Shown here one piece after another: positions 3,768 through 51,958 of a DNA stretch of 64,000 nt. The translations under genes were made by a program, and so were the position numbers. The DNA comes from an uncultured Candidatus Solibacter sp. Lineage in GTDB: Bacteria > Acidobacteriota > Terriglobia > Bryobacterales > Bryobacteraceae. How positions within the stretch are numbered: position 1 is the stretch's first letter; each line of letters begins with the position of its first letter. The notes under the pieces are model-generated. The model saw only the letters and a program-made list of their open reading frames with translations, was not told where the DNA came from and ran no database searches. The stretch covers positions 38,738 through 102,737 of the forward strand of contig CAYLPH010000021.1 of assembly GCA_964385495.1 (NCBI GenBank), in the 5' to 3' direction.

Positions 3768-4304
3768 ATGACGTCACAGTTCCCCGTCTGGCTTCTCTCC
3801 GCCATGGTGGTTTGCCTGGCAGCACTCTTCGCATGGCTGCTCGGTCGCATTCTGCGGATCGCGCCGGTGTACCCGGCATCCCGTTCCGAATCGCGGCGCC
3901 CGCTGAACCTCCGTCCAATGGAGCGGTTGCTGCGGGACGATGACTTCTCCTACCTCGCCAGTCTCCCTGGATACACTCCCGAGGTAGGACAGCGGCTTCG
4001 CGCCCGCCGCGTCGAGGTCTTCCGCGGCTATCTTTCCCAGGTGGAGGCAGAGTTCCACAGGCTGCATCTCGCCTTACGCCTCATCGGCCTCACTTCCGGG
4101 CAGGACCGGCCCGACTTGGCCCGGCTCCTTCTTGAGCAGCGAGTGGTCTTCTCCTACCGGATGTTCCAGGTGCGGCTGCGTCTGCTGTTCTTCGGCTTCG
4201 GCATCCGCCCGCTGGCCACGGGCGACATCGTGCGGACGGTCGAGGTCCTTCGCGAGCAGATTGCGACCCTCCAGCCGGCTATTGCGAGCGCGCCGGCTGC
4301 CTAG
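3768..4304 (+). CDS. membrane-anchored hypothetical protein
   Basis: 178-aa ORF with an N-terminal TM (FPVWLLSAMVVCLAALFAWLLG) followed by an Arg/Leu-rich helical region. I recognised no family. Confidence 0.5.
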   Translation: MTSQFPVWLLSAMVVCLAALFAWLLGRILRIAPVYPASRSESRRPLNLRPMERLLRDDDFSYLASLPGYTPEVGQRLRARRVEVFRGYLSQVEAEFHRLHLALRLIGLTSGQDRPDLARLLLEQRVVFSYRMFQVRLRLLFFGFGIRPLATGDIVRTVEVLREQIATLQPAIASAPAA

Positions 4305-6112: not shown

Positions 6113-6121
6113 CGCCAGCCC

Positions 6122-6760
6122 CTACCGGTACTTCCGCAGTACCGCCAGCAACTTCCCCTGCACCTCTACATCCTGGCTGGAAACGAAGATGGGCTCCATC
6201 GCCGCATTGGCGGGTTGCAGACGGACGTTGCCGTCGCCCTCCCGGTAGAAGCGTTTGAGCGTCGTGTCCGACCCCTTCACCAACGCCACCACGATGTCCC
6301 CGTTCCGCACGTTCGCGGTGCGCTCGATCAGTACGTAATCGCCATCGCAGATGTGATCTTCGATCATCGACTGCCCGCGCACTTGCAGTGCGTAGAGATC
6401 ACGGTCATTCACCAGATCCGAGAAATTCAGCGTCTCATTGGTCGAGTACGACTCCACCGGCGCTCCGGCGGCAATCCGGCCCTGAACCTCCACTTCCAGC
6501 GGCGGCACTCCCAAACTCGCGCTACTCTCGCGCCGCCACTCCTTTAGATAGCTCGCGGATAGCTCCAGCGAGCGGCTTTGGTTGAAGCCGCGCTTCAAGT
6601 ACTGCTTCGTCTCCAGCGTCTGGATGTGCTTATGCACGGTCGCCAGGGACGCCAACTCCAAGCCCGTCGCAATCTCTTCGTAGCTGGGGCAGTAGCCGTT
6701 TTTGTCCACAAATCCGGCTATGAAGTCCAATACTTCTTTCTGTCGGCGTGTAAGGGCCAT
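6122..6760 (-). CDS. lexA: LexA repressor
   Basis: MALTRRQKEVLDFIAGFVDKNGYCPSYEEIATGLELASLATVHKHIQTLETKQYL... plus the S24 block ...LQVRGQSMIEDHICDGDYVLIE...VVALVKGSDTTLKRF. The start is set at the ATG at 6760; the 23-codon upstream extension in the track is not LexA-like. Confidence 0.92.
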   Translation of the reverse strand: MALTRRQKEVLDFIAGFVDKNGYCPSYEEIATGLELASLATVHKHIQTLETKQYLKRGFNQSRSLELSASYLKEWRRESSASLGVPPLEVEVQGRIAAGAPVESYSTNETLNFSDLVNDRDLYALQVRGQSMIEDHICDGDYVLIERTANVRNGDIVVALVKGSDTTLKRFYREGDGNVRLQPANAAMEPIFVSSQDVEVQGKLLAVLRKYR

Positions 6761-6775
6761 GGCCCCATTATTGGC

Positions 6776-6790
6776 GAAGAAAAAGTGAAC
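6776..6790 (-). promoter_or_regulatory. candidate LexA operator (GTTC-N7-CTTC on the minus strand)
   Basis: The minus strand reads GTTCACTTTTTCTTC. That is one mismatch from the GTTC-N7-GTTC direct repeat reported for Acidobacterium/alphaproteobacterial LexA (from memory). It lies in the 67-nt spacer between lexA and the divergent serine hydrolase gene. Confidence 0.3.
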
Positions 6791-6827
6791 GTCAAGTCCT
6801 GTTTCCTGGACGCTATACTGGCTCTTC

Positions 6828-8438
6828 ATGCTTTTCCTGCCCGCCCTAGCCGCAGCGCTGTTCGCGGCCGCCGCACCTTCCCCCGACGCTCTGTTTGAAA
6901 AGTTGAACTCGACCCGCTCGCCGGGCTGTGCGGTGGGCGTCCTTCAGGACGGTAAAGTCTTGGTGGAAAAGGGCTATGGGATGGCCAGTCTCGAATACCA
7001 GCTTCCCATAACGGCGCGTTCGCGCTTCTATCTCGGCTCCACTTCCAAGGAATTCACGGCACTCACTGTGCTGCAGCTTGCCGAACAGGGACGGCTCTCG
7101 CTCGACGACTCCATCCGCCGTCACTTCCGGCAACTTCCCGCGTATACCGAAGCGGTGAAGGTGCGCCATCTGTTGGAACACACCAGCGGAATCCGCGATT
7201 ACATTGGCCTGTGGACCATCAACGGCGCCGGCGACGACACTCCACTGAATGAAACGCAAGTCTTTCGCCTCTTGGAACGCCAGAGTGCCCTGAACTTCGC
7301 CCCAGGGAGTGAGTTTCTCTACAGCAATTCCGGCTATTTCCTACTCGCCCAACTCACCCGGCCGCTCGCCCAGCGCCAATTTCCCGACCTCGCCCGCGAG
7401 CTGATTTTCGCTCCTCTTGGACTTGCGGACACCCTCTATTACACCGACCGTTTTGCTATCCTGCCCAACCGCGCCCAAGGTCATTCCCCGACTGGCTCGC
7501 AAGGCGCCTACCGGCTGAACAACGCCACGCTCGATCTTGCCGGTGACGGCGGCGTCTTCAGTTCCCTCCAGGATGTCCTCACCTGGCTCAAGCTGCTCGA
7601 CAGCCCTCCGCCCGCCTACGCCGCTTCTATCAAAGCCATGATGACACCCGCCAGGCTGAACTCGGGCGGGCTGGCCGAATACGGCCGTGGCTTCATGCTG
7701 CGCCAGTTTAAGGGCATCGATATCATCCAGCACCCAGGCGGACTGCGCGGCTACCGCTCCGATATCCTCTGGATCCCTTCCAAGCGTCTTGGCGTGGCTT
7801 GCCTCTGCAACACCAGTGATATCGACGCTGGCCGCATGACTCGCCAGATCGCCAGTCTCTATCTCAACCTGCCCGACCCACCCATCGTCAAGCTTCACAT
7901 CGCGCAACTGCAGCGCAAGACCGGCCAATTCCGCGACACGGACTCCGGCGATATCCTCCAACTCCAAATGCAAGGCGATCAACTGGTGGCCAACTACACT
8001 GGTTTCCAATTCGCCCTGCAGGCCGCCACACCCACCCGGTTTCGCTCCGCCCCCGGCTCCCCGCTCGACTTCGAACTCCAGTTCAAGTCCGATGGCGACC
8101 GCGACCTGCCGTCGTTCCAGCGCGTCGAAGCCGAATCGCATAAGCCCGCGCGCTACCAACGCATCAAGCTCGATCCTACTCCGCCGGCCAGCCCCAAAGA
8201 CTACGAAGGCACCTTCATTTCCACGGAAGTTGATGCCCAATGCCGCATTCGCTTCGAGGAAGGCCAATTGCAGTTCGAACAGAATGGGCTGGCGATGGGA
8301 GCCCTGGCCCACATCGCCGGCGAGTACTTCGCCTTGGCGAATCTGAATGTGGAGTTCCTGCGCGAAGGGGGGAAGGTAGTGGGAATGAAGCTAAATACCG
8401 GACGCGTCCGCGGATTGCGGTTCCAGCGCCTGCCATGA
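6828..8438 (+). CDS. secreted serine hydrolase, class C beta-lactamase / PBP fold, with an extra C-terminal domain
   Basis: 536-aa ORF with a signal peptide (MLFLPALAAALFAAAAPSP), the SxxK motif in YLGSTSKEFTALTVLQL and the YxN motif in LYSNSGYFLL. Confidence 0.85.
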   Translation: MLFLPALAAALFAAAAPSPDALFEKLNSTRSPGCAVGVLQDGKVLVEKGYGMASLEYQLPITARSRFYLGSTSKEFTALTVLQLAEQGRLSLDDSIRRHFRQLPAYTEAVKVRHLLEHTSGIRDYIGLWTINGAGDDTPLNETQVFRLLERQSALNFAPGSEFLYSNSGYFLLAQLTRPLAQRQFPDLARELIFAPLGLADTLYYTDRFAILPNRAQGHSPTGSQGAYRLNNATLDLAGDGGVFSSLQDVLTWLKLLDSPPPAYAASIKAMMTPARLNSGGLAEYGRGFMLRQFKGIDIIQHPGGLRGYRSDILWIPSKRLGVACLCNTSDIDAGRMTRQIASLYLNLPDPPIVKLHIAQLQRKTGQFRDTDSGDILQLQMQGDQLVANYTGFQFALQAATPTRFRSAPGSPLDFELQFKSDGDRDLPSFQRVEAESHKPARYQRIKLDPTPPASPKDYEGTFISTEVDAQCRIRFEEGQLQFEQNGLAMGALAHIAGEYFALANLNVEFLREGGKVVGMKLNTGRVRGLRFQRLP

Positions 8439-37698: not shown

Positions 37699-38834
37699 AA
37701 ATGTTTAACGGGTGGAATGGGTACGGTGCCGACGATCTCGATGCCAAAGCCTTCCAGCCCGGCAACCTTGCGTGGATTATTGGTGAGCAGCCGGATTCGC
37801 GACAGGCCCAGGTCCACCAGGATCTGCGCACCGATGCCGGTATCGTGCTGCTGCCGCCTCTCGCCCTGAGGCGTGGCGGGAAACTCATCCCGCCCATGCG
37901 TGAGCAGGCGCGTTCCCTGCGGGTCGGCATGCGTGCGGATGCCGGCCCCGGTCTGGTGCAGGTAGACCAGAACGCCCGCGCCTTCTTCGTCGATCGCCTT
38001 CAGCGCGCCATGAATCGCCTGGCCGCACTGGCAGTCGATGCTGTGAAACACATCGCCGTAGGTGCAGCGGGAATGCATGCGCACCAGAACATCGCCGCTG
38101 TGGCGCACATCTCCGCGAACCAGCGCCATGTGTGTCTCGCCATCCACGTTGCAGGAGTAGGATATGGTCCGGAACTCGCCGTGCGCCGTGCGCAGGCAGC
38201 CTTCGGCCCTCCGCATCACAATACTCTCGTGCTGCAGCCGGTAACGGATAAGGTCCGCCACGGAAATCATCTTCAGCCCGTGCTTTTCACAGAACTGTAT
38301 CAATTCGGGCACCCGCGCCATGGTGCCGTCGTCATTCATGATTTCGCAGATCACACCGCCAGGACGGAGTCCAGCTAGGCGTGCCAGGTCCACCGCGGCT
38401 TCTGTCTGTCCGGTCCGCACGAGCACGCCACCCTGTTTGGCGCGGAGCGGAAACATGTGTCCTGGGCGCGCCAGATCCGCTGGGCGTGTGGCCGGGTCCA
38501 TCATCACGCGGATGGTATGGGCGCGGTCCGCGGCGGAGATGCCGGTGGTCACACCGCTGGCCGCATCCACGGATTCGCAGAAAGCCGTCCCGAACATCGA
38601 CGTGTTGCGCGGCGTAATGAGCGGCAAATGAAGTTGGTCACACAACTCCGGCGCCAGCGCGATGCAAATCAGCCCGCGCCCATGCACGGCCATGAAATTA
38701 ATGAGCTCTGGCGTTATCTTCTCGGCGGCAATAGTAAGGTCGCCTTCGTTCTCGCGATCCTCGTCGTCCACCACCACCAACATCCGCCCGGCGGCGAAGT
38801 CAGCAATGGCTTCCGGTATCGGCGCAAATGGCAT
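37695..38834 (-). CDS. ribBA: bifunctional 3,4-dihydroxy-2-butanone-4-phosphate synthase / GTP cyclohydrolase II
   Basis: 379-aa ORF. ...[40 protein letters not shown]... (RibB) followed by ...[21 protein letters not shown]... (RibA). There is a 4-nt overlap with ackA. Confidence 0.92.
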
Positions 38835-38880
38835 AATGATTAACTCGATTCTAGCGTGAGCGCCCGGCGCGCTCGAGGTT

Positions 38881-41880
38881 TTGATGCATCAGGTCGCCCG
38901 TCCGAAGAATCTCCGGACTCCGCAACAGGAGTCACGCGAACGTGTCCGCTATTACATCTTCGCGGCCTTCGTTGGTATCCTTTTGCTGCTCAACGTCACG
39001 GGTGTCTTCAAGACTTTTCTCGGCATTGATACCGCCGCCTTCGTGGTTGTGCTGGCTGGCTACAAAACGTTCTACAACTCCATTGTTTCTCTTCTTGACA
39101 GGCAGGTCACGGCGGACCTGGCGATCTGCATCGCCGTGGTGGCCGCGCTTTCCACCGGCGAGTATCTGGCCGCCGCCGAGGCGCTGTTCATCATCCTGGT
39201 GGGTGAGGGGCTGGAAACGTACGCGGCTGGCCGTACCGACGCTGCCATTCGCAAGTTCGTGGAGCAGATGCCCCGCCGCGCCCACCTGCTCCGCGATGGC
39301 CAGGAAGTGGAGGTAGATGTCGACGACCTCAATCCAGGTGACCGCATTCTGGTGCGCGCCGGAGAGCGCATCACCGCCGATGGCTTAGTTGCCACGGGCC
39401 TGTCCAGCGTGGATGAGAGCACCATCACCGGTGAACCCGTACCGCGCGACAAGAAGCCCGGCGAGTCCGTGTTTGCCGGGACATTAAATGGCACCGGGTT
39501 GCTGGAGATCCAGGTCACCAGCGCCGGCTGGGATACAACACTGGCCCATGTGGTGCACCTGGTGAAAGAAGCCAGGAACCGCCAGGCTCCGGTAGAGCGC
39601 GCCGCCGATCAGGCTGCGAAGTACTTTCTGCCCGCGATACTGCTGGCCGCCGCCGCTACGTTCTACTTCACGCGCGATTGGCTGCGTACCGTTGCCGTTT
39701 TGATTGTCGGCTGTCCGTGCGCGTTGATTCTGGCAACGCCAACAGCCATGGTCGCGGCGATCGGCGGCCTGGCTCGCAAAGGCATCCTGGTGCGGGGCGG
39801 CGCCGTTCTCCAGAAAGCCGCGAAGGTGAATGCAGTCGTCTTCGACAAGACAGGCACGGTTACGGAAGGTAAGTTCGAGATTGTGCGTGTCATTCCGGCT
39901 GCGCAAAGCGAAGGGGAGGTGCTGCGGTTGGCGGCGATGGCCGAACGCGGGTCGGAGCATGTTCTGGCGCGCGTCATCGTCGAAGCCGCCAGGGCCAAGC
40001 ACATGGATATCCCTGCCGTCGAGGACGCCCGCGTGCTTCCAGGCTGCGGTGCGGAGGGCGTTTACCAGGGCATCGCCATTCGCGCCGGCAACGCCGCGTA
40101 CCTGAACGAGCATGGCGTCACAGGTCTGGAGGGCGCCCTTGCAGAAGCGGACCGTATGGGTGCTACCGCCGTGCTGGTAGCGGAAGACAACAGCTTGGCG
40201 GGCGCCATCCTGCTCCGCGACCGGCTTCGCGCCGGCGTGAAGAAGGCTATTCACCAACTGCGTGATCTCGATATCGACGATGTCGTCATGCTCACCGGCG
40301 ACCGGCGCCGCGCCGCCGAAGTGATCGCGAAGGAACTCCAGTTTCCGCAATTTGAAGCGGAACTGCTGCCAGAACAGAAGCTCGACCGCATCCGCCAGTT
40401 GGCAGGCAGCGGGCGCGTGGTGGCGATGGTCGGCGACGGTATCAACGACGCCCCCGCCTTGGCCGCAGCCGATGTGGGTATCGCGGTGAAGGGCGCCAGC
40501 GACATCACGGCCGAAGCCGCTGATGTGGTCTACATGAGCGATAGCCTGGACCGCCTGCCCCTGCTCTTCCGTGTCAGCCGGCGGGCCATGAAGATCACCT
40601 GGCAGAACATCGTGATCTTTGCCGGCGTGGTCAACTTCGCCGCGGTTCTGGCCTGCGCCACCGGCATCCTGGGACCGCTTGGGGCTGCCTTCACGCACCA
40701 GATCTCCTCGCTCTTCGTGATGCTGAGTTCACTGCGTCTGCTGCAAGCGGAGCCGGCGCAACCTGTCTGGGTGAGAAAGTATTTTGGCTGGGCGAGCGGG
40801 CATAGAATCCATCACCGGTGGGAACGGCTCGACCTCGCTCGGGCGGCACGTCGAGTCTGGTCCCAACGCGGCCGCTGGGCCCGTCCATTGGCGGCGGCCG
40901 CGGTTGCAATGGTGGTCATGAACGGCTTCTACGTGCTCCAACCCGACGAGACCGGCGTGGTGGAACGGTTCGGACGCAAGCTCATGCCGCACCGCGAGCC
41001 CGGCCTGCACTACAAATTGCCGTGGCCGGTGGAGAAGCTCACGCGCATCCAGGCACGGCGTACACGGGTGCTGGAGTTCGGGTATCGCTCCACCGCTGAC
41101 GCCAATGAGTCCGAGCCTGCCGCGTACGAATGGAACGTCCAGCACCGCGGCGGTCGCTTCCAACGCAAGCCGGAAGAGGCGCTGGTGCTTACCGGCGACC
41201 AGAACATGATGGAGGTGAATGCCGCCATTCATTACCGCCTGGCGCGGCCCGATGAATTCCTGTTCGGCCTCGCCGATGGAGAGGCGACGGTGCGCGTTGC
41301 CGCGGAGTCGGCTGTCCATGCGGTGCTCACCACGATGGACCTGGACGGGGCATTAACGCAGTCCCGGCGCGCGATGGAACAACGTATCGCCGGCGAGATG
41401 CAGCGCCGGCTGGACCGCTACCAGGCAGGTGTCGAGGTGCTGCACGTCAAACTGCTGGACGTGCATCCGTCGCTCGAAGTGGTGGATGCTTTCCGGAACG
41501 TCGCCGGAGCCTTCGAGGAGAAGAACCGGCTGGTCAATGAAGCAGAGGGCTATCGCAATGAGCAGGTGGCGCTGGCGCGCGGCAACGCACAGGCAGGCCT
41601 TCTCAACGCACAGGGCTATCGGGTTGGGCGCCGCAATCGCTCAGAAGGCGATGCCAGCCGCTTCGTCCGGGCCGAAGGCGCGTTCCGCACGGCTCCGGGG
41701 TCTACGGAAACGCGCCTCTATCTCGAGGCCATGGAAGAAGTCCTCCCCGGAAAACGCAAGCTGATCGTAGATGCTACCAAAGGCCGCCGGCACTTGCTGC
41801 TGCTGGAAGATGGAGTGGAGATCGCCCCGCCGGCCATGCCCTTTGTCGCACCCAACCGGCCACAGCGGGAGGAGCAGTAA
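38881..41880 (+). CDS. P1B-type heavy-metal-translocating ATPase fused to a C-terminal HflK-like SPFH (Band 7) domain
   Basis: 999-aa ORF with 8 N-terminal TM segments, TGEP (aa 183-186), CPC (nt 39712-39720), DKTGT (nt 39844-39858) and GDGINDAPAL (aa 519-528). After aa ~622 come an Arg/Trp-rich linker and one TM (aa ~669-686). An HflK-like sequence follows (VVERFGRKL..PGLHYKLPWPVEKL..LTGDQNMMEVNAAIHYR..VDAFRNVAGAFEEKNRLVNEAEGYRNE..GDASRF..RLYLEAMEEVL). Confidence 0.8.
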   Translation: MMHQVARPKNLRTPQQESRERVRYYIFAAFVGILLLLNVTGVFKTFLGIDTAAFVVVLAGYKTFYNSIVSLLDRQVTADLAICIAVVAALSTGEYLAAAEALFIILVGEGLETYAAGRTDAAIRKFVEQMPRRAHLLRDGQEVEVDVDDLNPGDRILVRAGERITADGLVATGLSSVDESTITGEPVPRDKKPGESVFAGTLNGTGLLEIQVTSAGWDTTLAHVVHLVKEARNRQAPVERAADQAAKYFLPAILLAAAATFYFTRDWLRTVAVLIVGCPCALILATPTAMVAAIGGLARKGILVRGGAVLQKAAKVNAVVFDKTGTVTEGKFEIVRVIPAAQSEGEVLRLAAMAERGSEHVLARVIVEAARAKHMDIPAVEDARVLPGCGAEGVYQGIAIRAGNAAYLNEHGVTGLEGALAEADRMGATAVLVAEDNSLAGAILLRDRLRAGVKKAIHQLRDLDIDDVVMLTGDRRRAAEVIAKELQFPQFEAELLPEQKLDRIRQLAGSGRVVAMVGDGINDAPALAAADVGIAVKGASDITAEAADVVYMSDSLDRLPLLFRVSRRAMKITWQNIVIFAGVVNFAAVLACATGILGPLGAAFTHQISSLFVMLSSLRLLQAEPAQPVWVRKYFGWASGHRIHHRWERLDLARAARRVWSQRGRWARPLAAAAVAMVVMNGFYVLQPDETGVVERFGRKLMPHREPGLHYKLPWPVEKLTRIQARRTRVLEFGYRSTADANESEPAAYEWNVQHRGGRFQRKPEEALVLTGDQNMMEVNAAIHYRLARPDEFLFGLADGEATVRVAAESAVHAVLTTMDLDGALTQSRRAMEQRIAGEMQRRLDRYQAGVEVLHVKLLDVHPSLEVVDAFRNVAGAFEEKNRLVNEAEGYRNEQVALARGNAQAGLLNAQGYRVGRRNRSEGDASRFVRAEGAFRTAPGSTETRLYLEAMEEVLPGKRKLIVDATKGRRHLLLLEDGVEIAPPAMPFVAPNRPQREEQ

Positions 41881-41883
41881 CTC

Positions 41884-42771
41884 ATGAACGGATTTGTCGA
41901 GAAGTATTCCCGCTGGCTGCTGGGTGCGGCCGCGCTCCTGATGATATGGCTATCGTTCTACACCGTGCGCGAGACCGAGTTCGTGCTGGTGACGCAGTTC
42001 GGGCGCCCGCTCTACACGGTCCACGAAGCGGGCCTACACACCAAGTGGTTCTTTCAAAGCGCAACCTACTTCGATAAGCGGCTGCGCGTTTATAACCCCC
42101 GCCCAAGTGAATTCCTGACGCGCGATAAGAAGAACCTGGTCGTGGAAAGCTACGTCGCCTGGCGCATTCAGGATCCCAAGCGCTTTGTGGAAAGCGTGGG
42201 CGATCCGGTTGCCGCGGAGATGCGCCTGCACGATATTGTCTGGTCCGGCCTGGCGGCGGCACTGGGCACTCATGATCTGGATTCGCTGATCTCGGTCAAC
42301 ACGCAAGCCGTACAGGCGCGGCAGCTCTTTGATCAACTGACAGCCGATACCGACCGCAAAGCGCTCGCCCAATACGGACTCCAGGTGGTGGACGTGCGCA
42401 TCAAACGCTTGAATCTCCCCGATCAGAACAAGCAGAGCGTCTATGCGCGAATGCGCGCCGAACGCGAACGGATCGCCCGCCAGTATCGCGCCGAAGGCGA
42501 AGAACAAGCGTTACGCATTCGCGCCGATGCGGACCGGCAGAAGGAAGAGATCCTCTCGCTTGCCTACAAAGATGCCGAGAAACTCAAAGGCGAGGGCGAT
42601 GCCGAGTCCACCCGCACGTACTCGCAGGCCTACTCGCGAAACCCGCGCTTCTACAAGCTGCTGCGCACTCTGGAGGCCTACAAGAAGGTCCTGGACGACA
42701 AGACCACAGCCATCCTCAGTTCGGACTCGGAACTGTTGAAAGTCCTGATGCGCGGAGAGACGGCCCAATGA
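41884..42771 (+). CDS. hflC: HflC-like SPFH domain protein
   Basis: 295-aa ORF with an N-terminal TM. ...FVLVTQFGRPL...LTRDKKNLVVESYVAWRIQDP...VVDVRIKRLNLPDQNKQSVYARMRAERERIARQYRAEGEEQALRIRADADR...GEGDAES...NPRFYKLLRTLEAYKKVL. Confidence 0.8.
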   Translation: MNGFVEKYSRWLLGAAALLMIWLSFYTVRETEFVLVTQFGRPLYTVHEAGLHTKWFFQSATYFDKRLRVYNPRPSEFLTRDKKNLVVESYVAWRIQDPKRFVESVGDPVAAEMRLHDIVWSGLAAALGTHDLDSLISVNTQAVQARQLFDQLTADTDRKALAQYGLQVVDVRIKRLNLPDQNKQSVYARMRAERERIARQYRAEGEEQALRIRADADRQKEEILSLAYKDAEKLKGEGDAESTRTYSQAYSRNPRFYKLLRTLEAYKKVLDDKTTAILSSDSELLKVLMRGETAQ

Positions 42772-43748
42772 AGCTGCTGGAACTGGATCCGGCGCTGTTG
42801 AAGGCTTCGTTACCGCCCGAGGCTGCCAGCACGATCCGGCGCCGCTGGTGGCTGGGCTTGCTGCTGTTGTGGTTGCTCACCAGCGTCTACATTGTGCGGG
42901 CCGATCAGCAGGCAGTAGTGACGCGCTTTGGACGCGTCGTGGAATCGCGCGTGACCCCCGGTATTCACCTTAGCCTGCCGTGGCCGGTGGATCGCGTGAC
43001 GCGCCTGAAGGTGCGGCAACTGCAACGCCAGGTGATCGGAGGTACGCTCACCGACAACGTGGTGGGCCGCACCCAACCGTTATTGGCGCAATTCCTTACC
43101 GGTGACCAGAACATCATTTACCTGCGCGTCATCGCACAGTATTCCGTGAGTGTTCCGGCCGACTACCTGTTCCAGACCGGGGATGTCGCCAAGGTGGTGA
43201 TGGCTGCCAGCGAAGCCGAACTGGCGCGGCGCATCGCTTCCCGCGCCGTTGACGCCGTGCTTACCACGGAGAAGGCCGCTATTCAGGAAGAGGTGCGCGC
43301 GGCCGCCCAGAAGGTATTGAACGACTATCGTTGCGGCGTCATCCTGGCGAGCGTGAACATCGAGTCCGCCGCGCCACCCCCCGAAGCCGCCGAGGCCTTT
43401 CGCGACGTGGCCAGCGCGCGCGCGGATTCCGCCCGCATCGTGAATGAAGCGCAGGGCTATGCCAATGACCTCCTCCCCAAGGCCCGCGGCCAGGCGCAGC
43501 AATTGCTGGAATCCGCGGCCGCCTACAAACAACGTAAGATCAACGAAGCCATCGGCGACGCATCCCGCTTCTCGCAGGTCGCGGCGGAGTATGCCAAGGC
43601 GAGTGAAGTGAACGGTCGCCGCCTCTACATGGAGACCATGGAGCAGGTGCTGCCGCGAATCAGGAAACTGATCGTGGATAAGAACGGCAACCTCGATCTC
43701 ACCATCGTCCGCCGTGCCACTGAGCCGGCCAGCGGGGAGAAGAAGTGA
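42768..43748 (+). CDS. hflK: HflK-like SPFH domain protein (second HflK-type module)
   Basis: 326-aa ORF with an ATGA overlap to hflC. ...AVVTRFGRVVESRVTPGIHLSLPWPVDRV...FLTGDQNIIYLRVIAQYSV...AFRDVASARADSARIVNEAQGYANDLLPKARGQAQ...GDASRFSQV...RLYMETMEQVLPRIRKLIVD. Confidence 0.8.
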   Translation: MKLLELDPALLKASLPPEAASTIRRRWWLGLLLLWLLTSVYIVRADQQAVVTRFGRVVESRVTPGIHLSLPWPVDRVTRLKVRQLQRQVIGGTLTDNVVGRTQPLLAQFLTGDQNIIYLRVIAQYSVSVPADYLFQTGDVAKVVMAASEAELARRIASRAVDAVLTTEKAAIQEEVRAAAQKVLNDYRCGVILASVNIESAAPPPEAAEAFRDVASARADSARIVNEAQGYANDLLPKARGQAQQLLESAAAYKQRKINEAIGDASRFSQVAAEYAKASEVNGRRLYMETMEQVLPRIRKLIVDKNGNLDLTIVRRATEPASGEKK

Positions 43749-44248
43749 CAAAGGAGCGGCGGGCACAGGTCCTGACGGTGCTCATTCTTGGCGGGGCACT
43801 TGCCTTCGCCGGCTATCGCAAGGGTGCGTTGCCTGCAATTGATTTGTCGGGGGTGGCGGCGCAGAACGCCCCACAAGCTGACCCTACACCGCAGGATGCC
43901 GTCTATGCGATGCTGGACGCCGGTAGGGAAGGCAAGGTGGCGGAGTATCTGGCCGCGCACACCGGGCAGATGGCGGAGTCCTTGCGGAAGTCGATTGCCG
44001 AGCAGGGCGATGCGGCGTTTTCGGCGTACCTCCGGGAGTCGAATTCGCCCATCAAAGGCATTGCTCTGCAGGAGCCGCAGCCGCTGACCGATCATGAGGT
44101 GAAAGTAAAAGTGGAGTATGTTTTCGCTGACCGCAATGAGGTGCAGTGGATGTACCTGGAGCGCGACGGCAAGCTGTGGCGAATCTCCCGCGTAGATGCG
44201 GCGGAACGGATCAAGACGCTGGTTCCCTATGGCACGCCTGTCCGTTGA
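43745..44248 (+). CDS. membrane-anchored hypothetical protein (possibly an NTF2-like fold)
   Basis: 167-aa ORF with a GTG start in a GTGA overlap with hflK. One TM (VLTVLILGGALAFAGY) is followed by a ~120-aa soluble domain. Confidence 0.55.
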   Translation: MTKERRAQVLTVLILGGALAFAGYRKGALPAIDLSGVAAQNAPQADPTPQDAVYAMLDAGREGKVAEYLAAHTGQMAESLRKSIAEQGDAAFSAYLRESNSPIKGIALQEPQPLTDHEVKVKVEYVFADRNEVQWMYLERDGKLWRISRVDAAERIKTLVPYGTPVR

Positions 44249-46739
44249 GGCACGCCGGAAACTGCTGGTGGCGCTGGCGGTGCTGGCCGGCATCTACCTG
44301 GCCACCTACTCGTACGATGTCCTGCGCCGCATTTACAGCCGCGGCATCGTTTCCGATCCGCTGGAGTTCACGATGCTTCCGCCGGAGGTCGGCCTGGTCC
44401 GGCCGGAGGCTCGCGGATTCGGGCTGAAGCATGGCGACCAACTCACGTCGATCAATGGCCAACCTATCACCGGATCGCTGACGTTGAGCCGCTTGCTGGC
44501 GAAGGCCAAGCCCGGCGATACGATGATCATCACGTGGCGCTCCCAAAGCGGCGGCGCCGAGCACAAGGCTTCGCTGACTCTCCGCAACCCGCCGCGCGGC
44601 GCCACGCCCATCCCCCTGCTGATCACGCAGGTGCTGCTTCCCAATTTCAGTATGCTGTTGGGCTTCACCGTAGCGTTCCTGCGCCCGCTGGACCGGCGTT
44701 CGTGGATCCTGCTTGGCCTCATGATCTCCTTCCCTGGCATGATCCAGTCGCCAGTGGATATCGGCCGTTGGCCCACCCCGCTCTACGAACTCGGCATGCT
44801 GTTTCGCGTGGGGGCGCCGATGACCTGGGGCATCTGGATGATGCTTCTGGGCCTGGAGTTTCCGGAACGGCTCCATGGCTTCCGCCGTCTGCGCGCAGCG
44901 GCATGGGCACTGGGAGCGCCCCTCCTGCTGCTTTCCCTGGCGCGGTTCTCGTTCGAGTTTGTGCGTGCCCACAACGTTCAATCCGCCCGTGCCCTCTGGG
45001 ACATAATGCGTCCCGCGGGCTTTATCTCGCTGATCCTATCCATGGCGGCGATTGGCCTCTTCTTCTCCGCAATGGGTATCCAGAATGCGGTGATCGAGAA
45101 GCCCGACGCCCGGCGGCGCGCCAAACTCCTATTGTGGGGTTCCTACGTGGCCCTTACGCCAACCTTCCTATTGCTGCTGTGGTCGCTCGCGCTGGGCCGG
45201 CCGCCGATGGGTGCCGCGCCGTTCCCAATCGTGATCTTCACGTTTCTCATGATGGCCCTGTTCCCGGTGGTGCTGGCCTACATCATCGTGGTCGAACAGG
45301 CGCTGGATATCCGCGTGGTATTGCGCCTGGGCATGCAGTACGCGCTCGCGAAGAATGCGCTGGTCGGCGCCAGTTGGCTAGTGGGCGGGTTAGTAGCCGT
45401 GTATGTCATTCGCGCCATAGAGTCGGAGCAGAGCCAATCGCTGGAAGTCGCCACGGCGTTGGTGGGCGCGGGCGCCGTCGCCTCGCTCATCCCTCTTCAG
45501 AAGCGCCTGACGCAAGCCATCGACCGCCGCTTCTTTCGCGACGCCTACAATGCCGAGCATGTGTTGACCGAACTGACCGAAGAGGTGCGTACCGTCGTGG
45601 AGCCGGGACCGCTAGTCGAGATGGTCGGCAATCGCATCTCGCAGGCCATGCACGTTCCCCGGTTGGCGATATTGCTCAAACAGCCCGCGGGCTATCAGCC
45701 GGCGTTCACCATCGGGTATCCCCCGGAGATGGTGGCGGAGCGGCTTCCGGAGATCCCCGATGTCGATCAGATCGATCCGCGCCATCCGCCCAAGCCCGAT
45801 GGGTGGAGCCGCCTCGATACCCATCTGCTGCTCCCCGTGCTCTCGAAGAACGGTGTACTCGGCATGATCAGCCTGGGTGGGAAGCGCTCCGAGGAGCCTT
45901 ACTCTTCGAGCGATATCCGTCTCCTTCGTTTGGTAGCGGCACAGACGGCGCTGTCTCTTGAGAACACAAAGCTCACCGCCGTGGTAGCGCATGAAATCGC
46001 ACAGCGGGAACAGTATGACCGCGAGATGGCCATCGCCCGGGATGTGCAGCGGCGCCTGTTCCCCAGCAAAGTGCCGCAGTTGCGCAACGTGGATTGCGCC
46101 GGCGGCTGCCGTCCGGCCCAGAGCGTGGGTGGCGACTACTACGATTTCTCGGAGCTCCCTGACAACGAGATGATGTTCGCGGTGGGCGATGTAAGCGGCA
46201 AGGGCATGCCCGCGGCTCTGCTGATGGCGGCGCTGCAGGCCAGCGTTCGCGGACAGACCATGAACAGCGTCACGGATCTGGCGCTGTTCACACGCAACGT
46301 CAACCTGCTGCTCTACGACATGTCGCCGAAGAGCCATTTCGCAACCCTGTTCTACGCGCTCTACGATCCGGTTCTGCGCACGCTGCGCTATGCCAATGCC
46401 GGGCACAATCCGCCGCTGTTGATTCGCGCCAACGGGCCGCTCGACTTCCTGAAGCCCACCGGACCCGGTGTCGGCATGACGCGGCTGGCGGTGTATAAGG
46501 CGGAAGAGGTAAGACTCAAGCCAGGCGATATGGTAGTGGCGTACACCGACGGCATCACCGAAGCCATGGATCGCACTAGGGACGACTTTGGCGAGTTGCG
46601 GCTGATCGAAGCCGTGCGGGCATCGCGGGATAAGAGCGCTGGCGAGATTATTCGCCACATCATGACCGCCGTTGACGAGTTCACGAAGGGCGCGCCCCAG
46701 CATGACGACATGACGCTGGTCATCCTGAAGGTGCAGTAG
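44229..46739 (+). CDS. membrane-bound PP2C (SpoIIE-type) protein phosphatase with an N-terminal PDZ domain and a polytopic sensor region
   Basis: From the ATG at 44229: a TM, then a PDZ-like segment (LKHGDQLTSINGQPITGSLTLSRLLAKAKPGDTMIITW), ~8 TM segments and a GAF-like linker. The SpoIIE block follows (ARDVQRRLFP...GGDYYDF...FAVGDVSGKGMPAALLMA...YANAGHNPP...YTDGITEA...DDMTLVILKV). Confidence 0.8.
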   Translation: MARLSVEARRKLLVALAVLAGIYLATYSYDVLRRIYSRGIVSDPLEFTMLPPEVGLVRPEARGFGLKHGDQLTSINGQPITGSLTLSRLLAKAKPGDTMIITWRSQSGGAEHKASLTLRNPPRGATPIPLLITQVLLPNFSMLLGFTVAFLRPLDRRSWILLGLMISFPGMIQSPVDIGRWPTPLYELGMLFRVGAPMTWGIWMMLLGLEFPERLHGFRRLRAAAWALGAPLLLLSLARFSFEFVRAHNVQSARALWDIMRPAGFISLILSMAAIGLFFSAMGIQNAVIEKPDARRRAKLLLWGSYVALTPTFLLLLWSLALGRPPMGAAPFPIVIFTFLMMALFPVVLAYIIVVEQALDIRVVLRLGMQYALAKNALVGASWLVGGLVAVYVIRAIESEQSQSLEVATALVGAGAVASLIPLQKRLTQAIDRRFFRDAYNAEHVLTELTEEVRTVVEPGPLVEMVGNRISQAMHVPRLAILLKQPAGYQPAFTIGYPPEMVAERLPEIPDVDQIDPRHPPKPDGWSRLDTHLLLPVLSKNGVLGMISLGGKRSEEPYSSSDIRLLRLVAAQTALSLENTKLTAVVAHEIAQREQYDREMAIARDVQRRLFPSKVPQLRNVDCAGGCRPAQSVGGDYYDFSELPDNEMMFAVGDVSGKGMPAALLMAALQASVRGQTMNSVTDLALFTRNVNLLLYDMSPKSHFATLFYALYDPVLRTLRYANAGHNPPLLIRANGPLDFLKPTGPGVGMTRLAVYKAEEVRLKPGDMVVAYTDGITEAMDRTRDDFGELRLIEAVRASRDKSAGEIIRHIMTAVDEFTKGAPQHDDMTLVILKVQ

Positions 46740-46740
46740 G

Positions 46741-47253
46741 ATGATTGCCCTGCTTTCCGTATTGCTCGGATGCCTGCTCTCTTCGCAGACCCCGGCGCCG
46801 CAATTGCCTGATATCAAATACGCCCGCCGCCCACCGGATCAGCCGCTGCCGTTCAGCCATAAGCAGCATGCCGGCACCAACGGCACCGCCTGCAGGCAGT
46901 GCCATCCCATGCCGGATCCGGGCGACTACATGCAACTGCCGGCCACCTCCGTTTGCATGAGTTGCCACACCGCCATAAAGACCGCCAGCCCGCACATCCA
47001 AGCGTTGTCGGCGGCGCATGCCGAACGGCGCAAGATCGAATGGAAGCCGGTGTACAAGATCCCGGATTACGTGTTCTTCAATCACAAGAAGCACAATGCA
47101 CTGGCGGGCGTGAGTTGCGCGAGTTGCCACGGGCCGGTGAAAGAGCGCGAAGTGCTGCGGCGCGAGAAAGAGATCAGCATGCAAGCCTGCATGGATTGCC
47201 ACCGCCAGATGCAAGCCCGGAACGACTGCCGGTTCTGCCACGACCCGCGCTAG
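46741..47253 (+). CDS. pentaheme c-type cytochrome lipoprotein
   Basis: 170-aa ORF with a lipobox-like VLLGC. Five CxxCH motifs are read directly: CRQCH, CMSCH, CASCH, CMDCH, CRFCH. It starts 1 nt after the phosphatase stop. Confidence 0.8.
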   Translation: MIALLSVLLGCLLSSQTPAPQLPDIKYARRPPDQPLPFSHKQHAGTNGTACRQCHPMPDPGDYMQLPATSVCMSCHTAIKTASPHIQALSAAHAERRKIEWKPVYKIPDYVFFNHKKHNALAGVSCASCHGPVKEREVLRREKEISMQACMDCHRQMQARNDCRFCHDPR

Positions 47254-48428
47254 CGCGCCTGCACCAACTTGCCCACCAGTTCCGTGATCTCCCGCTTCAA
47301 CCGCGCATGCCGCGCGCCGGTGGATGGCCCATCGAAGCCGGCATGGAGCAGCTTCACTTTGCCGTCGCGCCCAATGTAGATATTGGTGGGATACGCGCCA
47401 AAGTTTTCCAACTGCGGCAGGGTCTTCTCGATATCCTCCGTGGCGCCCGCGTAGAGAATCGGGTACGGCGGCTGGTATCTTGCCTGGAACAACTTCAACT
47501 GGCGGATGTCGCGCTCCGCCTCGCCCGTGTACTCAAAGGCCAGCGAGATAATCTCCAAACCCTTGTCGTGAAACTTGGCCCATAGCTCCTTCAGCAGCGG
47601 AATCTCTTCATGGCAGTTCGGGCACCAGCTTCCCATGATGTTGATCAACACAACCTTGCCCTGGAAACGCGGATCGGCGGCGGACAGACGGTTGCCGTTT
47701 AGATCGGGGAAGGAGAATTGAAACCGCTCCGACGGGTTCTTCATCCGCGTGTAGGCAGTCGCTTCCGGCGGCTTCTCGCTCGTCTCTTTCGCCCTCCGGC
47801 CGCGCACGGTGGCGCTGCCGTCCATCATCCCCGTTAGTGCGCCATCGGTTCCCACGCTGGCCGCCAGCAACGTGGAGCGGATCCCGTCAAAGCGGCTAAC
47901 CCGCAGCGAACGTCCCTCGACGAAGCCCGACAGCAATCCGGAGTCGCCGCTCACCGGCAGCAGCGTACCTTCCAGTCTGCTGCCTTTCTGCGCGAACTGC
48001 GCCTTCCAGATGCTGCGCTTTCCGGCGTCCGTCACTTCCAGTGTCCATTCCCCGGATACATCCACGGCCGGTGGAAGTTTGGGCGTCAGCAGCGGCTGCC
48101 GTTGCGCCAGGAACTCACGTTTGCGGATCTCCTTCCGCCAGGTACGCGTATAGACGCCAGTGAACTTCGTCCCATCGAAGTCCGCCTCCAGCACGCCATC
48201 CCAGTGATTGAAGACCAGCCGTAACTTCTGCCCATCGAAGGTGCCGGAACTCGACTGCTCGCGGTCCGGGCCGTTAACAAGGGCGCCGGACCACGCGTTG
48301 CCGCGCTGTTCGAGTTGTAATTGGAAGCCGGCGAGATCGCCGTTCGGAAGCTTGACCGCCGCATGCCAGACACCGGTAACACTCTGTGCATGGGCCGTCG
48401 CGCACAGGGCAAGGACCCGGAGTAGCAT
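47250..48428 (-). CDS. TlpA/redoxin-family thiol-disulfide oxidoreductase with an N-terminal extra domain (secreted)
   Basis: The C-terminal thioredoxin fold is ...GKVVLINIMGSWCPNCHEEIPLLKELWAKFHDKGLEIISLAF.... The start is set at the ATG at 48428 (MLLRVLALCATAHAQS). Confidence 0.8.
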   Translation of the reverse strand: MLLRVLALCATAHAQSVTGVWHAAVKLPNGDLAGFQLQLEQRGNAWSGALVNGPDREQSSSGTFDGQKLRLVFNHWDGVLEADFDGTKFTGVYTRTWRKEIRKREFLAQRQPLLTPKLPPAVDVSGEWTLEVTDAGKRSIWKAQFAQKGSRLEGTLLPVSGDSGLLSGFVEGRSLRVSRFDGIRSTLLAASVGTDGALTGMMDGSATVRGRRAKETSEKPPEATAYTRMKNPSERFQFSFPDLNGNRLSAADPRFQGKVVLINIMGSWCPNCHEEIPLLKELWAKFHDKGLEIISLAFEYTGEAERDIRQLKLFQARYQPPYPILYAGATEDIEKTLPQLENFGAYPTNIYIGRDGKVKLLHAGFDGPSTGARHARLKREITELVGKLVQAR

Positions 48429-48489
48429 ATCGCTATCATGCCATGAGACAGGGGCGAAGGCCGGTGCCATGGCATGACCGGGCAGGCCG

Positions 48490-49326
48490 CTAAGACGTCT
48501 TGCGAGCGTTCGCCTTCTTCAATACTTCCTGAATCTTCGCGGTCAGCTCTTTCTTCTCCTTGCTCTCCGGCGCTTCCTTGATCAACTCCAGTGCTTCCGT
48601 GGAGAGAGCCTTCAATAGATCCGGCCGGTCCAGTTTGCGGGCATCGTAAAGCTGCGCGCCGTCAAACAGCGTCTTTGCCATCGACATGGCGAACACCGGC
48701 AGCGACACCTTGGCTGGAGGGGTCTGGAACGCCGCGCGACCCTTGGCCGCATCGTCACCCGCGCCCACGGAGTCGGTCACGGCTAGCACCACACCTCGCT
48801 GTACGGCCGCCTTACGGGCCTTCTCAATCTCCACCGGGGGCAGCAGAATGCCTTTCGACGCCTGCACCAGCGCCGCTACCGGAGCTGCGCTGCCCGAGGG
48901 AAAGGGGAAATCCAGGACCACCTCGGCAGGTTTCGCCGCTTTGAACTTCCGCCAGGATTCCAGCAACTGCATCGTCAGGTTGCCGGCTACCGAGCGGGCG
49001 TCGTTCAAGCTCTTGCGAAACGGCGTGGGATTCGTCTTATTCTCGCGGCCGCCGTATTCGAACTTCTCCGCGAAATCCAGGTAACCGCGCAACATGCCGG
49101 ATAACATCACCAGCCGCCACGGGCGGGCGCGCTCGGTGAACTCATTCTGGGACTTCAATAATTGTTCCAGATGGTCATTGGTCTTCATGAAATCGCCGGC
49201 GGCGTACGACTCTTGTGCCGCCTGCCAGTAGAAGGCCGGGGTTCCCTTGGCCGGGGGCGCCGGCTGGTTAGAACAGGAGCAGAGCAGTGAGAACAGCAGG
49301 ACTCCAACAACAGGGATGGGGCGCAT
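48490..49326 (-). CDS. hypothetical lipoprotein
   Basis: From the ATG at 49326: MRPIPVVGVLLFSLLCSCSNQ (lipobox), then a helical ~250-aa domain. I recognised no family. Confidence 0.6.
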   Translation of the reverse strand: MRPIPVVGVLLFSLLCSCSNQPAPPAKGTPAFYWQAAQESYAAGDFMKTNDHLEQLLKSQNEFTERARPWRLVMLSGMLRGYLDFAEKFEYGGRENKTNPTPFRKSLNDARSVAGNLTMQLLESWRKFKAAKPAEVVLDFPFPSGSAAPVAALVQASKGILLPPVEIEKARKAAVQRGVVLAVTDSVGAGDDAAKGRAAFQTPPAKVSLPVFAMSMAKTLFDGAQLYDARKLDRPDLLKALSTEALELIKEAPESKEKKELTAKIQEVLKKANARKTS

Positions 49327-49426
49327 TGAGTCTCCTTTGCTTGATGTGAGGGTTATCACAGACCTGGGCCGGTGACAAGGGGTGGCTCTTCCCGCCCCCG
49401 GTGCGCTAGGGTGAGATTAACCACCG

Positions 49427-50169
49427 ATGTTCGTCCTTCGTACGCTCTCCGGTCTGCTTGTACTTGCTGCGTTGGCTGCCGGCGCCGGCCCGCTTGGTTA
49501 CGATTGCCGGCGTGCTTCGACCCCCGTGCGGATCGATGGCAAACTCGACGACCCGGCGTGGCAGACCGCCCCGTGGACCGCGGACTTCGTCGACATCGAG
49601 GGCGACGCGAAGCCCCGGCCCCGATTCCTTACCCGCGCCAAGATGCTCTGGGATGACCAGTACTTTTACATCGCCGCCGAACTGGAGGAGCCGCACGTCT
49701 GGGCTACGTTGACGAAACACGACGCCGTCATCTTTCACGACAACGACTTCGAAGTCTTCCTCAACCCATCCGGCGACACGCTCAACTACTTCGAATTCGA
49801 AATGAATGCGTTAAACACAGGCTGGGATCTCTTCCTGCCAAAACCCTACAAGAAGCAGGGCAAAGCCGACAATAGCTGGGAGATTCCCGGTCTGCGTACT
49901 GCTGTCCAGGTGCAAGGGACACTCAATGATCCGCGCGATCAGGATCGTGGCTGGACGCTGGAGATTGCCTTCCCCTGGACTGCCTTTGCGTCGAAGGCGC
50001 CGGTCAAAAGGCCCAAGCCCGGCGAATCCTGGCGGGTGAACTTCTCCCGCGTCGAGTGGCGCGTCGAAATCCGCGACGGCCGCTATGTCAAACTGCCGGG
50101 CTTAAAGGAAGACAACTGGGTGTGGTCGCCGCAAGGGCTCATCGACATGCACGTCCCAGAGATGTGGGG

Positions 50170-50191
<22 letters not shown>
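49427..50191 (+). CDS. carbohydrate-binding family 9-like (DOMON-like) secreted protein
   Basis: 254-aa ORF. ...VRIDGKLDDPAWQTAPWTADFVDIEG...MLWDDQYFYIAAELEEPHVWATLTKHDAVIFHDNDFEVFL...YFEFEMNALNT. Confidence 0.8.
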
Positions 50192-50877
<686 letters not shown>

Positions 50878-51882: not shown

Positions 51883-51958
51883 TGGTGGACGGCATGGGAT
51901 TCGAACCCACGACCCCCGCATTGCGAACGCGGTGCTCTCCCAACTGAGCTAGCCGCCC
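51883..51958 (-). tRNA. tRNA-Ala (anticodon CGC), CCA encoded
   Basis: The reverse complement is GGGCGGC-TA-GCTC-AGTTGGGA-GAGC-A-CCGCG-TTCGCAA-TGCGG-GGGTC-GTGGG-TTCGAAT-CCCAT-GCCGTCC-A-CCA. It folds into a full cloverleaf with a 7-bp acceptor stem carrying the G3:U70 alanine identity pair. The anticodon loop is TT-CGC-AA, with a GTTCGAATC T-loop and discriminator A73. Confidence 0.93.

Follow-up and report, generated by a model that had tools for sequence, protein, structure and literature searches.

A gene block joining a P-type ATPase::HflK fusion to HflC, a second HflK and a small NTF2-like protein in Bryobacterales, with a lineage-specific phosphatase and cytochrome

A stretch of 64,000 nucleotides (nt) from an uncultured Candidatus Solibacter sp. 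(assembly GCA_964385495.1, contig CAYLPH010000021.1, positions 38,738 to 102,737; hereafter the window) carries six co-oriented genes encoding a P1B-type ATPase fused to an HflK-like SPFH domain, HflC, a free HflK paralogue, a small NTF2-like protein, a membrane phosphatase and a pentahaem cytochrome. A preliminary description of this DNA had taken the six genes as one dedicated envelope system. We consider it probable that the cluster is instead built of three layers: a conserved core of the pump fusion, HflC and HflK, joined in Bryobacterales by the small gene, a phosphatase that was acquired once, and a cytochrome that belongs to another gene pair. As judged by sequence comparison, the candidate module comprises four genes in Bryobacterales and three across phyla, not six, and the phosphatase and cytochrome appear to be later, lineage-specific neighbours or recent passengers. 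All of the parts can be placed in known families (HflK, HflC, P1B ATPase, PP2C, PDZ, GAF, c3/c7 cytochrome), while the four-gene unit is apparently undescribed and databases name the fusion only generically. The genes of the block, followed by its two borders, are listed below in the numbering of the window.

38884-41880, plus strand: P1B-type ATPase::HflK-like SPFH fusion, 998 amino acids (aa), anchor of the unit, starting upstream of the region covered by the preliminary description
41884-42771, plus strand: HflC, 295 aa
42768-43748, plus strand: free HflK paralogue, 326 aa
43745-44248, plus strand: small anchored NTF2-like protein, 167 aa
44229-46739, plus strand: PDZ-transmembrane-GAF-SpoIIE/PP2C membrane sensor phosphatase, 836 aa
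46741-47253, plus strand: periplasmic pentahaem c3/c7-type cytochrome, 170 aa
37695-38834, minus strand: ribBA, divergent, bordering the block upstream
47250-48470, minus strand: redoxin gene, convergent, bordering the block downstream and encoding a 406-aa Redoxin/AhpC-TSA protein

The evidence for this reading comes mainly from gene neighbourhoods. One genome per species was scanned with the small protein, which gave 173 genomes, and 80 loci were fetched in which the presence of the block genes was scored by tBLASTn with the window proteins; counts were restricted to loci with enough flank, namely 53 with at least 5.2 kb upstream, 74 for the upstream HflK and 66 for the downstream side. The full order fusion-HflC-HflK-small gene was found in 43 of the 53 loci, the fusion was present anywhere in the locus in 48 of the same 53, HflK immediately preceded the small gene in 59 of 74, and HflC was present in the block of nearly all related loci. 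The four-gene block is conserved in about 60 Bryobacterales species loci. Its tight spacing is conserved as well: HflC and HflK overlap by 4 nt in 30/49 loci, HflK and the small gene by 4 nt in 19/30, and the fusion and HflC are separated by 10 nt or less in 37/54, and since these junctions recur across species they are more than a product of chance. A search of 1.84 billion representatives clustered at 50% identity returned approximately 58–62 distinct full-length fusions of 950–1300 aa with 33–49% identity. The fusion P0170 led to hundreds of proteins of Gemmataceae (Planctomycetota) that are named only “cation-translocating P-type ATPase” or “Cu+-exporting ATPase”, and in two Planctomycete contexts (n=2) the fusion is followed by an HflC-like and then an HflK-like gene, without the small protein, phosphatase or cytochrome. 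The view that the pump forms a unit with the three SPFH modules is therefore upheld by the block in about 60 Bryobacterales loci and by the triad in a second phylum. Conservation of the neighbourhood had been proposed as the check on the whole cluster, and it upholds the four-gene version but not the six-gene version, which is confined to one clade.

Within the window itself, re-reading of the open reading frames reproduced every coordinate and junction of the preliminary description, and the picture of translationally coupled genes on a single strand was borne out. The stop codon of the ATPase gene ends at 41880 and the ATG of hflC lies at 41884, leaving a 3-nt gap; hflC and hflK share an ATGA overlap (42768-42771), hflK and the small gene a GTGA overlap (43745-43748), the phosphatase ATG at 44229 lies within the small gene to give a 20-nt overlap, and a 1-nt gap at 46740 precedes the cytochrome. 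The GTG start of the small gene is supported by its N-terminus MTKER, conserved in 22 homologues, and the phosphatase ATG at 44229 by a conserved N-terminus MARLS together with 836-aa gene calls. A scan for promoter and terminator consensus sequences over 38000-48600 gave counts at or below the shuffled expectation and no notable internal terminators, and the search of the locus against Rfam revealed no RNA element or riboswitch, its sole match being a tRNA at 51886-51958. A defence system was considered and rejected, as none of the 6 proteins has a PADLOC match.

The fusion protein matches the Pfam families E1-E2_ATPase, Hydrolase and Band_7. It scores 553 bits against TIGR01525 of NCBIfam (cut-off 346), and its C-terminal third scores 190 bits against the hflK model TIGR01933 (cut-off 159.4). 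A search of the PDB with the fusion retrieved Archaeoglobus fulgidus CopA (3e-106) and Escherichia coli HflK (4e-32), with ZntA and sCoaT also among the best matches. The catalytic motifs DKTGT, TGE and GDGIND and the CPC motif of the fourth transmembrane helix (TM4) are intact, the P-type motifs and CPx are conserved in 42 Bryobacterales fusions and in about 58 representative fusions, and the pump thus looks catalytically competent. In an AlphaFold2 model built with Gemmataceae homologues, the ATPase core is predicted with confidence, residues 623-651 form a disordered linker, 662-679 a ninth TM helix and 682-862 an SPFH domain, and a 58-residue helix (864-921) comes last, which is the layout of HflK. 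Hydropathy and the model agree on eight TM helices plus one, so the fused SPFH domain would lie outside, in the periplasm, and the same topological reasoning predicts that the soluble parts of the core proteins are periplasmic.

The metal site of the pump is conserved in its own right, with a family-wide signature of aCPC[AP]L.LATP in TM4, QNI..FA..N in TM5 and H[QE]xxS..V..N[SA].RLL in TM6; the TM6 motif was also read as THQxSS, beside the CPC of TM4. The P1B-1 (Cu+/Ag+) subgroup reportedly carries NX6YNX4P in TM5 and MxxSS in TM6; this assignment was rejected, as TM5 of the fusion reads QNIVIFAGVVNF, without YN and without Pro, and its TM6, THQISS, has a His where the subgroup has Met. The P1B-2 (Zn2+/Cd2+/Pb2+) subgroup is characterized by NX7K in TM5 and DxG in TM6 and was likewise rejected, neither the Lys nor DxG being found at the aligned positions. 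The P1B-4 (Co2+/Fe2+/Zn2+) subgroup has SPC in TM4, HEGSTX5N[SG] in TM6 and six TM helices; the TM6 of the fusion, H[QE]xxS[SL]x..N[SA], is similar to this, but the fusion has CPC in TM4, four TM helices before the A-domain and eight in total. The site (CPC, TM5 Asn, H[QE]xxS) therefore appears to lack a full match to any of the Cu(I), Zn(II) or Co(II) signatures, and because of this the predicted substrate is best given as an unspecified transition metal. A literature search for the motifs of P1B-5, P1B-6 and P1B-7 yielded no usable signature.

The other two SPFH proteins are equally well placed. HflC scores 218 bits against TIGR01932 (cut-off 134.4) and aligns with the E. coli HflC chains of 7vhp at E 2.5e-42 (HflC residues 196-326 aligned), and the free HflK scores 220 bits against TIGR01933 (cut-off 159.4) and aligns with E. 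coli HflK residues 87-352 of the same entry at E 2.8e-41. The three SPFH modules of the preliminary description, i.e., the fused HflK-like domain, HflC and HflK, therefore stand, all of them above the NCBIfam cut-offs. The alignments of HflK and HflC to 7vhp span from the TM helix to the coiled coil, and hydropathy, the AlphaFold2 model of the fusion and 7vhp together indicate the architecture expected of HflK/HflC proteins, namely a TM helix at the N-terminus, an SPFH domain placed in the periplasm by the predicted topology, and a long coiled-coil helix. The hflK and hflC genes are adjacent, as expected of such a pair; their order here is hflC and then hflK, preceded by the fused hflK-like gene, and the free HflK and the fused SPFH part share 34% identity in a pairwise alignment. 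Both HflK paralogues differ from the E. coli protein around the residues that contact FtsH. The fused HflK has an insertion of about 33 aa (window 41040-41190), and the free HflK one of 15 aa (window 43010-43060), in the SPFH loop of the E. coli FtsH contacts R141/E142; at the positions of the contacts R141, E142 and R185 the free HflK has Q, R and M, and the fused HflK retains R185.

The small gene encodes the 167-aa protein with a single TM helix that had been described, and this was confirmed. Its N-terminal TM helix is joined by a linker to an NTF2-like domain, and its C-terminal tail, TLVPYGTPV, is invariant in an alignment of 22 diverse homologues. Its AlphaFold2 model has a mean pLDDT of 84.5 and folds into a TM helix plus an NTF2-like cone, for which Foldseek returned ketosteroid-isomerase, NTF2 and DUF4783 folds with probabilities of 0.99–1.0 but TM-scores of 0.3–0.57. 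The sequence has no match in Pfam or NCBIfam at E 0.01 or better and is thus not assigned to any family of the NTF2 clan, and one source labels a homologue as DUF4878. There are 276 homologues, and the protein is encoded in 173 species genomes, almost all of them Bryobacterales. Species that lack the phosphatase have an equally invariant tail, and its final residue is R or Q, not a hydrophobic one; as the tail is conserved even without the PDZ phosphatase, its partner must lie in the core or elsewhere.

From these features, and largely by analogy with E. coli, a mechanism for the core can be proposed. The C-terminus of the ATPase would continue through a disordered cytoplasmic linker of about 40–50 residues into the ninth TM helix and the periplasmic HflK-like SPFH domain. 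HflC would pair and alternate with HflK-type subunits in a ring- or dome-shaped assembly at the periplasmic side of the inner membrane, as E. coli HflK and HflC do in their periplasm-facing dome (7vhp and related entries; PMC13220708), and where the pump-fused paralogue occupied some of the HflK positions the pumps would be permanently tethered at the rim of an SPFH microdomain. By diluting the fused one, the free HflK may set the number of pumps per ring, and the NTF2-like protein, the fourth gene added in Bryobacterales, may serve as a periplasmic accessory of the ring or of the pump. The benefit of the ring to the pump could be a lipid microdomain, presentation to FtsH, or confinement of the exported metal. 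The assembly of the ring, the tethering of the pump and the roles of the free HflK and the small protein are all inferred in this scheme.

An alternative that builds on the same proteins is that the triad is the HflK/HflC modulator of FtsH in this lineage, and that the fusion hands the pump to FtsH for turnover or quality control instead of organizing transport. The scores of all three SPFH proteins above the HflK/HflC equivalog cut-offs and their alignment to the E. coli FtsH-HflKC chains would suit it, as would the binding of E. coli FtsH to the assembly via HflK (PMC13220708). We nevertheless regard it as unlikely, because two HflK paralogues and a dedicated accessory gene exceed the needs of a general HflKC; the substitutions Q, R and M at the FtsH contacts of the free HflK and the 15–33-residue insertion in the contact loop of both paralogues are a weaker argument against it.

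Several further observations concern the surroundings of the core. In 18 of the 80 Bryobacterales loci, a gene for a protein of about 1000 aa with a Sec signal lies next to or inside the ATPase-SPFH block (for example L074:1076-4030; others include L047, L051, L058, L060, L063, L068-L071, L073, L078 and L082-L085). The protein has propeller repeats and a weak match to DUF3604, a PHP-like metallo-hydrolase family. In L060 and L083, which lack the triad, its gene is paired with the small NTF2-like gene. The gene is a commoner neighbour than the phosphatase and has no homologue in the window; the protein is a possible periplasmic recipient of pumped metal. In a Gemmataceae-like contig of 9.3 Mb, a gene for a 293-aa protein (L087:13473-14354) with only a faint CarboxypepD_reg match follows the triad on the same strand; the protein might be another lineage-specific fourth component, comparable to the NTF2-like protein. 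Identical blocks of the Bryobacterales type also occur in bins labelled Acidobacteria and Cytophagales (L076, L077), and further blocks in bins labelled Acidimicrobiia (L013) and Verrucomicrobiia (L074); these odd taxa are probably binning errors rather than a real taxonomic spread.

A more far-reaching version of the ring model would see the HflK/HflC-type dome as a vault for the metal pump. HflC would alternate with fused and free HflK and close off a small periplasmic chamber, the ATPase would discharge metal inside it, and the metal would be handed to the NTF2-like protein and, in other Bryobacterales, would also reach the DUF3604-like metalloenzyme, so that the whole would act as a nano-compartment for periplasmic metallation or sequestration. 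We hold this to be rather improbable; if true, it would be the first SPFH cage with a covalently defined client.

The phosphatase forms the second layer. Its SpoIIE/PP2C domain scores 168 bits against PF07228 (cut-off 25), and the motifs GGDYYD, GDVSGKG, TDGITEA and DDMT are invariant in the phosphatase alignment. A GAF_2 domain is matched by Pfam at 36 bits. The PDZ domain, at about residues 45-125, gives 22–23 bits as a single sequence, below the Pfam cut-off of 27; a profile from 7 homologues found the PDZ domains of RseP, DegP and DegQ in the PDB at E 1e-7 to 1e-6. Hydropathy suggests a single TM helix ahead of the PDZ domain and about nine on its C-terminal side, approximately 10 hydrophobic segments in all, consistent with a periplasmic PDZ and a cytoplasmic GAF-PP2C. 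The protein of about 840 aa with PDZ and SpoIIE/PP2C domains that had been described is therefore real, while its count of about 8 TM helices is too low and the GAF domain had been overlooked.

The distribution of this gene is narrow. It follows the small gene in 5 of the 66 loci, or in 7 loci when truncated contigs are counted (L007-L012 and L016), and these loci group as a single clade when a neighbour-joining tree is built from HflC+HflK. The sister clade (L014, L015, L017) has kept the synteny with ribBA and has neither phosphatase nor cytochrome. As the carriers are confined to one clade, a single acquisition each of the phosphatase and the cytochrome is indicated. The overlap of small gene and phosphatase is kept in L007-L012 and is replaced by a 4-nt gap in L016. 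Two tandem phosphatase paralogues follow the small gene in two relatives (L008:10476-15604, L010:10392-15604); the sensor halves in these relatives share 25–41% identity, and the PP2C halves, which diverge far more slowly, about 46–54%. A metagenome scan recovered at least 22 full-length phosphatase homologues of identical architecture, and among them no SPFH, ATPase, small-protein or cytochrome neighbour, nor any neighbour in common, was found. A partner kinase or anti-sigma factor had been suggested as something to look for, and by Pfam no STAS protein, RsbW-like kinase or sigma factor occurs among the genes called in window 24-62.7 kb, so the phosphatase is not placed among partner-switching systems. 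In the scheme proposed here, the phosphatase, a member of a widespread family that otherwise stands alone, would have been acquired once in the sub-clade that includes this genome, be co-expressed through the 20-nt overlap, and presumably act on a partner encoded elsewhere; membership in a dedicated module is not what a single monophyletic sub-clade and homologues that stand alone suggest.

The cytochrome forms the third layer. Its five CxxCH motifs are conserved in the orthologues, it matches Cytochrome_C7 (PF14522, 41 bits) and Cytochrom_CIII (PF02085, 40 bits) above both cut-offs, and its homologues are Bryobacterales proteins of the “cytochrome c3 family”. Identity with QrcA or with ActA of ACIII was rejected, because the QrcA score of 85 bits falls short of the cut-off of 180 and the vicinity holds no Qrc or Act genes. 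The 170-aa length and the five CxxCH motifs given in the preliminary description are correct, but the lipoprotein label is unsupported, because the Cys of the putative lipobox (LLGC) is present in the window sequence only and the orthologues read LFAS, FAAA, LAAA and TAAA; the protein is most likely a Sec-exported soluble periplasmic protein.

The gene follows the phosphatase in only four loci, and its recurrent partner is a different one. In L007, L008, L010 and L011, a gene of the FMN_dh (alpha-hydroxy-acid dehydrogenase) family lies directly after the cytochrome, often overlapping it, and the pair is also found in unrelated contexts, after a TonB-type receptor gene in L091 and after purH in L092. 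The positions of FMN_dh beside the cytochrome are as follows.

L007:13469-14689, FMN_dh gene
L091:9505-10695, FMN_dh gene
L092:9547-11939, two copies

The FMN_dh protein of L008 carries a twin-arginine signal. In L007, the closest relative, FMN_dh lies between the cytochrome and the same convergent redoxin gene that borders our block; in the window the cytochrome and the redoxin gene overlap by 4 nt (47253/47250), and no FMN_dh gene is found anywhere in it. Given this recurrent partner, the cytochrome may be seen as the electron acceptor in a periplasmic dehydrogenase pair that has lost its other member in this genome, and is probably the orphaned half of a cytochrome plus FMN-dehydrogenase pair rather than part of a dedicated module with the SPFH block. 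A unit of cytochrome and FMN dehydrogenase exported by the twin-arginine (Tat) route would have landed downstream in the same clade as the phosphatase, and this genome would have lost the dehydrogenase. A separate arrangement exists in Ca. Sulfopaludibacter SbA3 (L065), where a cytochrome orthologue (3869-4729) lies 447 nt upstream of the fusion (5176-8148) on the same strand; it has 40% identity with all five haem sites aligned and no adjacent FMN_dh.

These distributions bear on the original proposal that all six genes are one envelope system for homeostasis or signalling linked to redox state or metals, with the pump, the SPFH cage, the PDZ-PP2C sensor and the cytochrome acting jointly. It can appeal to six co-oriented genes with overlaps or gaps of 3 nt or less, to the small gene/phosphatase overlap kept in L007-L012 with a 4-nt gap in L016, to the cytochrome orthologue that stands beside the ATPase in L065, although in a different arrangement, and to the fact that PDZ domains bind C-terminal tails and the protein encoded upstream has an invariant one. 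The phosphatase, however, is found in 7 of the 80 species loci and the cytochrome after it in 4, all in one clade and from one acquisition event; the sister clade with the same ribBA synteny has neither gene, phosphatase homologues elsewhere never adjoin SPFH genes, the conserved partner of the cytochrome is the FMN dehydrogenase, and the Planctomycete triads are without both. Binding of the small-protein tail by the phosphatase PDZ is itself disfavoured, as species without the phosphatase share the invariant tail and its last residue is R or Q; such binding is kept as a candidate of low probability. On this balance a six-gene system is quite doubtful. More doubtful still is that the phosphatase serves the clade as a sensor of the SPFH-pump module, its PDZ reading the state of the ring or the NTF2-like tail and signalling to a cytoplasmic partner-switching or GAF-linked pathway, for although the PDZ is predicted to be periplasmic like the SPFH and NTF2 domains, the overlap is conserved across the clade and two relatives have tandem copies, the gene was acquired once, the surrounding 24-62.7 kb encode no STAS or RsbW partner, its homologues stand alone in varied contexts and the tail needs no phosphatase to be invariant.

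The three-layer reading has to be weighed against several points of its own. The 80 loci were chosen by the small protein and thus cover only loci that carry the small gene. The proposed mechanism presumes that the pump stays attached to its SPFH part, uncleaved, and co-assembles with HflC and HflK; the triad might also be the only HflK/HflC of the cell. For the phosphatase, the N-terminal half is only 25–38% identical in the sub-clade and the overlap with the small gene is yet retained, which provides some argument that the linkage has selective value. For the cytochrome, L065 is a second, independent juxtaposition with the ATPase that is unexplained by the view of accidental neighbours.

The flanks of the block hold a few other features. 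The spacer between ribBA and the ATPase gene is only 49 nt in the window (38835-38883), and comparison of this spacer in L007-L017 revealed a motif of about 25 nt beside the ribBA start, AATGAT[CT]TACTC(C)GATTCTA, that is conserved in the clade, and a GC-rich hairpin at 38857-38875 that is not conserved in the relatives. Downstream, the minus strand of 47250-50500 holds a thiol-redox-type cluster that encodes the 406-aa Redoxin/AhpC-TSA protein, a 278-aa protein without a match and a 108-aa T4_deiodinase-like protein.

The effects of SPFH and HflKC cages on the membrane proteins they enclose, and the choice of their clients, are still unsettled even for the FtsH-HflKC of E. coli. A survey of prokaryotic SPFH proteins and operons in 2009 identified no accessory partner for the HflK/HflC subfamily, and the ATPase-SPFH fusion is absent from it (PMC2636767); we found no literature description of an ATPase::HflK fusion accompanied by HflC and another HflK, in a search that reached few subscription journals and thus amounts to absence of evidence only. 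In the block described here, the client would be fixed by gene fusion, as a metal P-type ATPase is joined to HflK and accompanied by a matching HflC, a second HflK and, in the order Bryobacterales, a dedicated accessory. Spread across two phyla and dozens of clusters at 50% identity, the core could offer a natural, genetically defined system for studying how an SPFH ring affects a transporter, be it through lipid environment, stoichiometry, turnover or ion confinement, and it flags a P1B subgroup with a distinct metal-site signature. It also gives reason for caution, as tight, overlapping gene junctions are not enough on their own to establish a functional module, and of the six coupled genes two appear to be recent passengers.

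Compared with known systems, the core is closest to the FtsH-HflK/HflC of E. coli (7vhp, 7wi3, 9cz1/2, 9paw), with which it shares the pairing of HflK with HflC and the build of both proteins, in which a TM helix at the N-terminus leads into a periplasmic SPFH domain and a long coiled-coil helix. It differs in having two HflK paralogues, one covalently fused to a P1B-type ATPase and both with an insertion in the FtsH-contact loop, in its coupled NTF2-like fourth gene, and in that no ftsH is found in the neighbourhood. The ATPase resembles CopA, ZntA and CzcP/sCoaT in its eight TM helices, the CPC of TM4 and the motifs DKTGT, TGE and GDGxND, but has no N-terminal metal-binding domain and ends in an SPFH domain; its TM5 lacks both the YN of Cu(I) pumps and the Lys of Zn(II) pumps, and the H[QE]xxS of its TM6, which replaces MxxSS or DxG, is closest to the HEGST motif of P1B-4 but combined with CPC instead of SPC. 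As in the SPFH-NfeD operons (stomatin/YbbK-YbbJ, YuaG-YuaF), an SPFH gene is translationally coupled to a small membrane-anchored accessory (PMC2636767), whereas the accessory here has an NTF2-like fold in place of the OB fold of NfeD and the SPFH proteins are of the HflK/HflC type. The phosphatase shares with SpoIIE, RsbU and SiaA a SpoIIE-family PP2C domain with invariant Asp motifs and upstream sensor domains; its input differs, as it consists of a periplasmic PDZ, about 10 TM helices and a GAF domain, its NCBIfam scores are far below the cut-offs (SiaA 37.5 against 700), and unlike partner-switching phosphatases it has no STAS or anti-sigma partner encoded nearby. The cytochrome, finally, is like the QrcA/ActA-like cytochromes a periplasmic protein of about 170 aa with a Sec signal, five CxxCH motifs and c3/c7 Pfam matches, but it falls below the QrcA cut-off and lies away from Qrc or ACIII subunits, with the gene for a Tat-exported FMN_dh protein as its recurrent neighbour.

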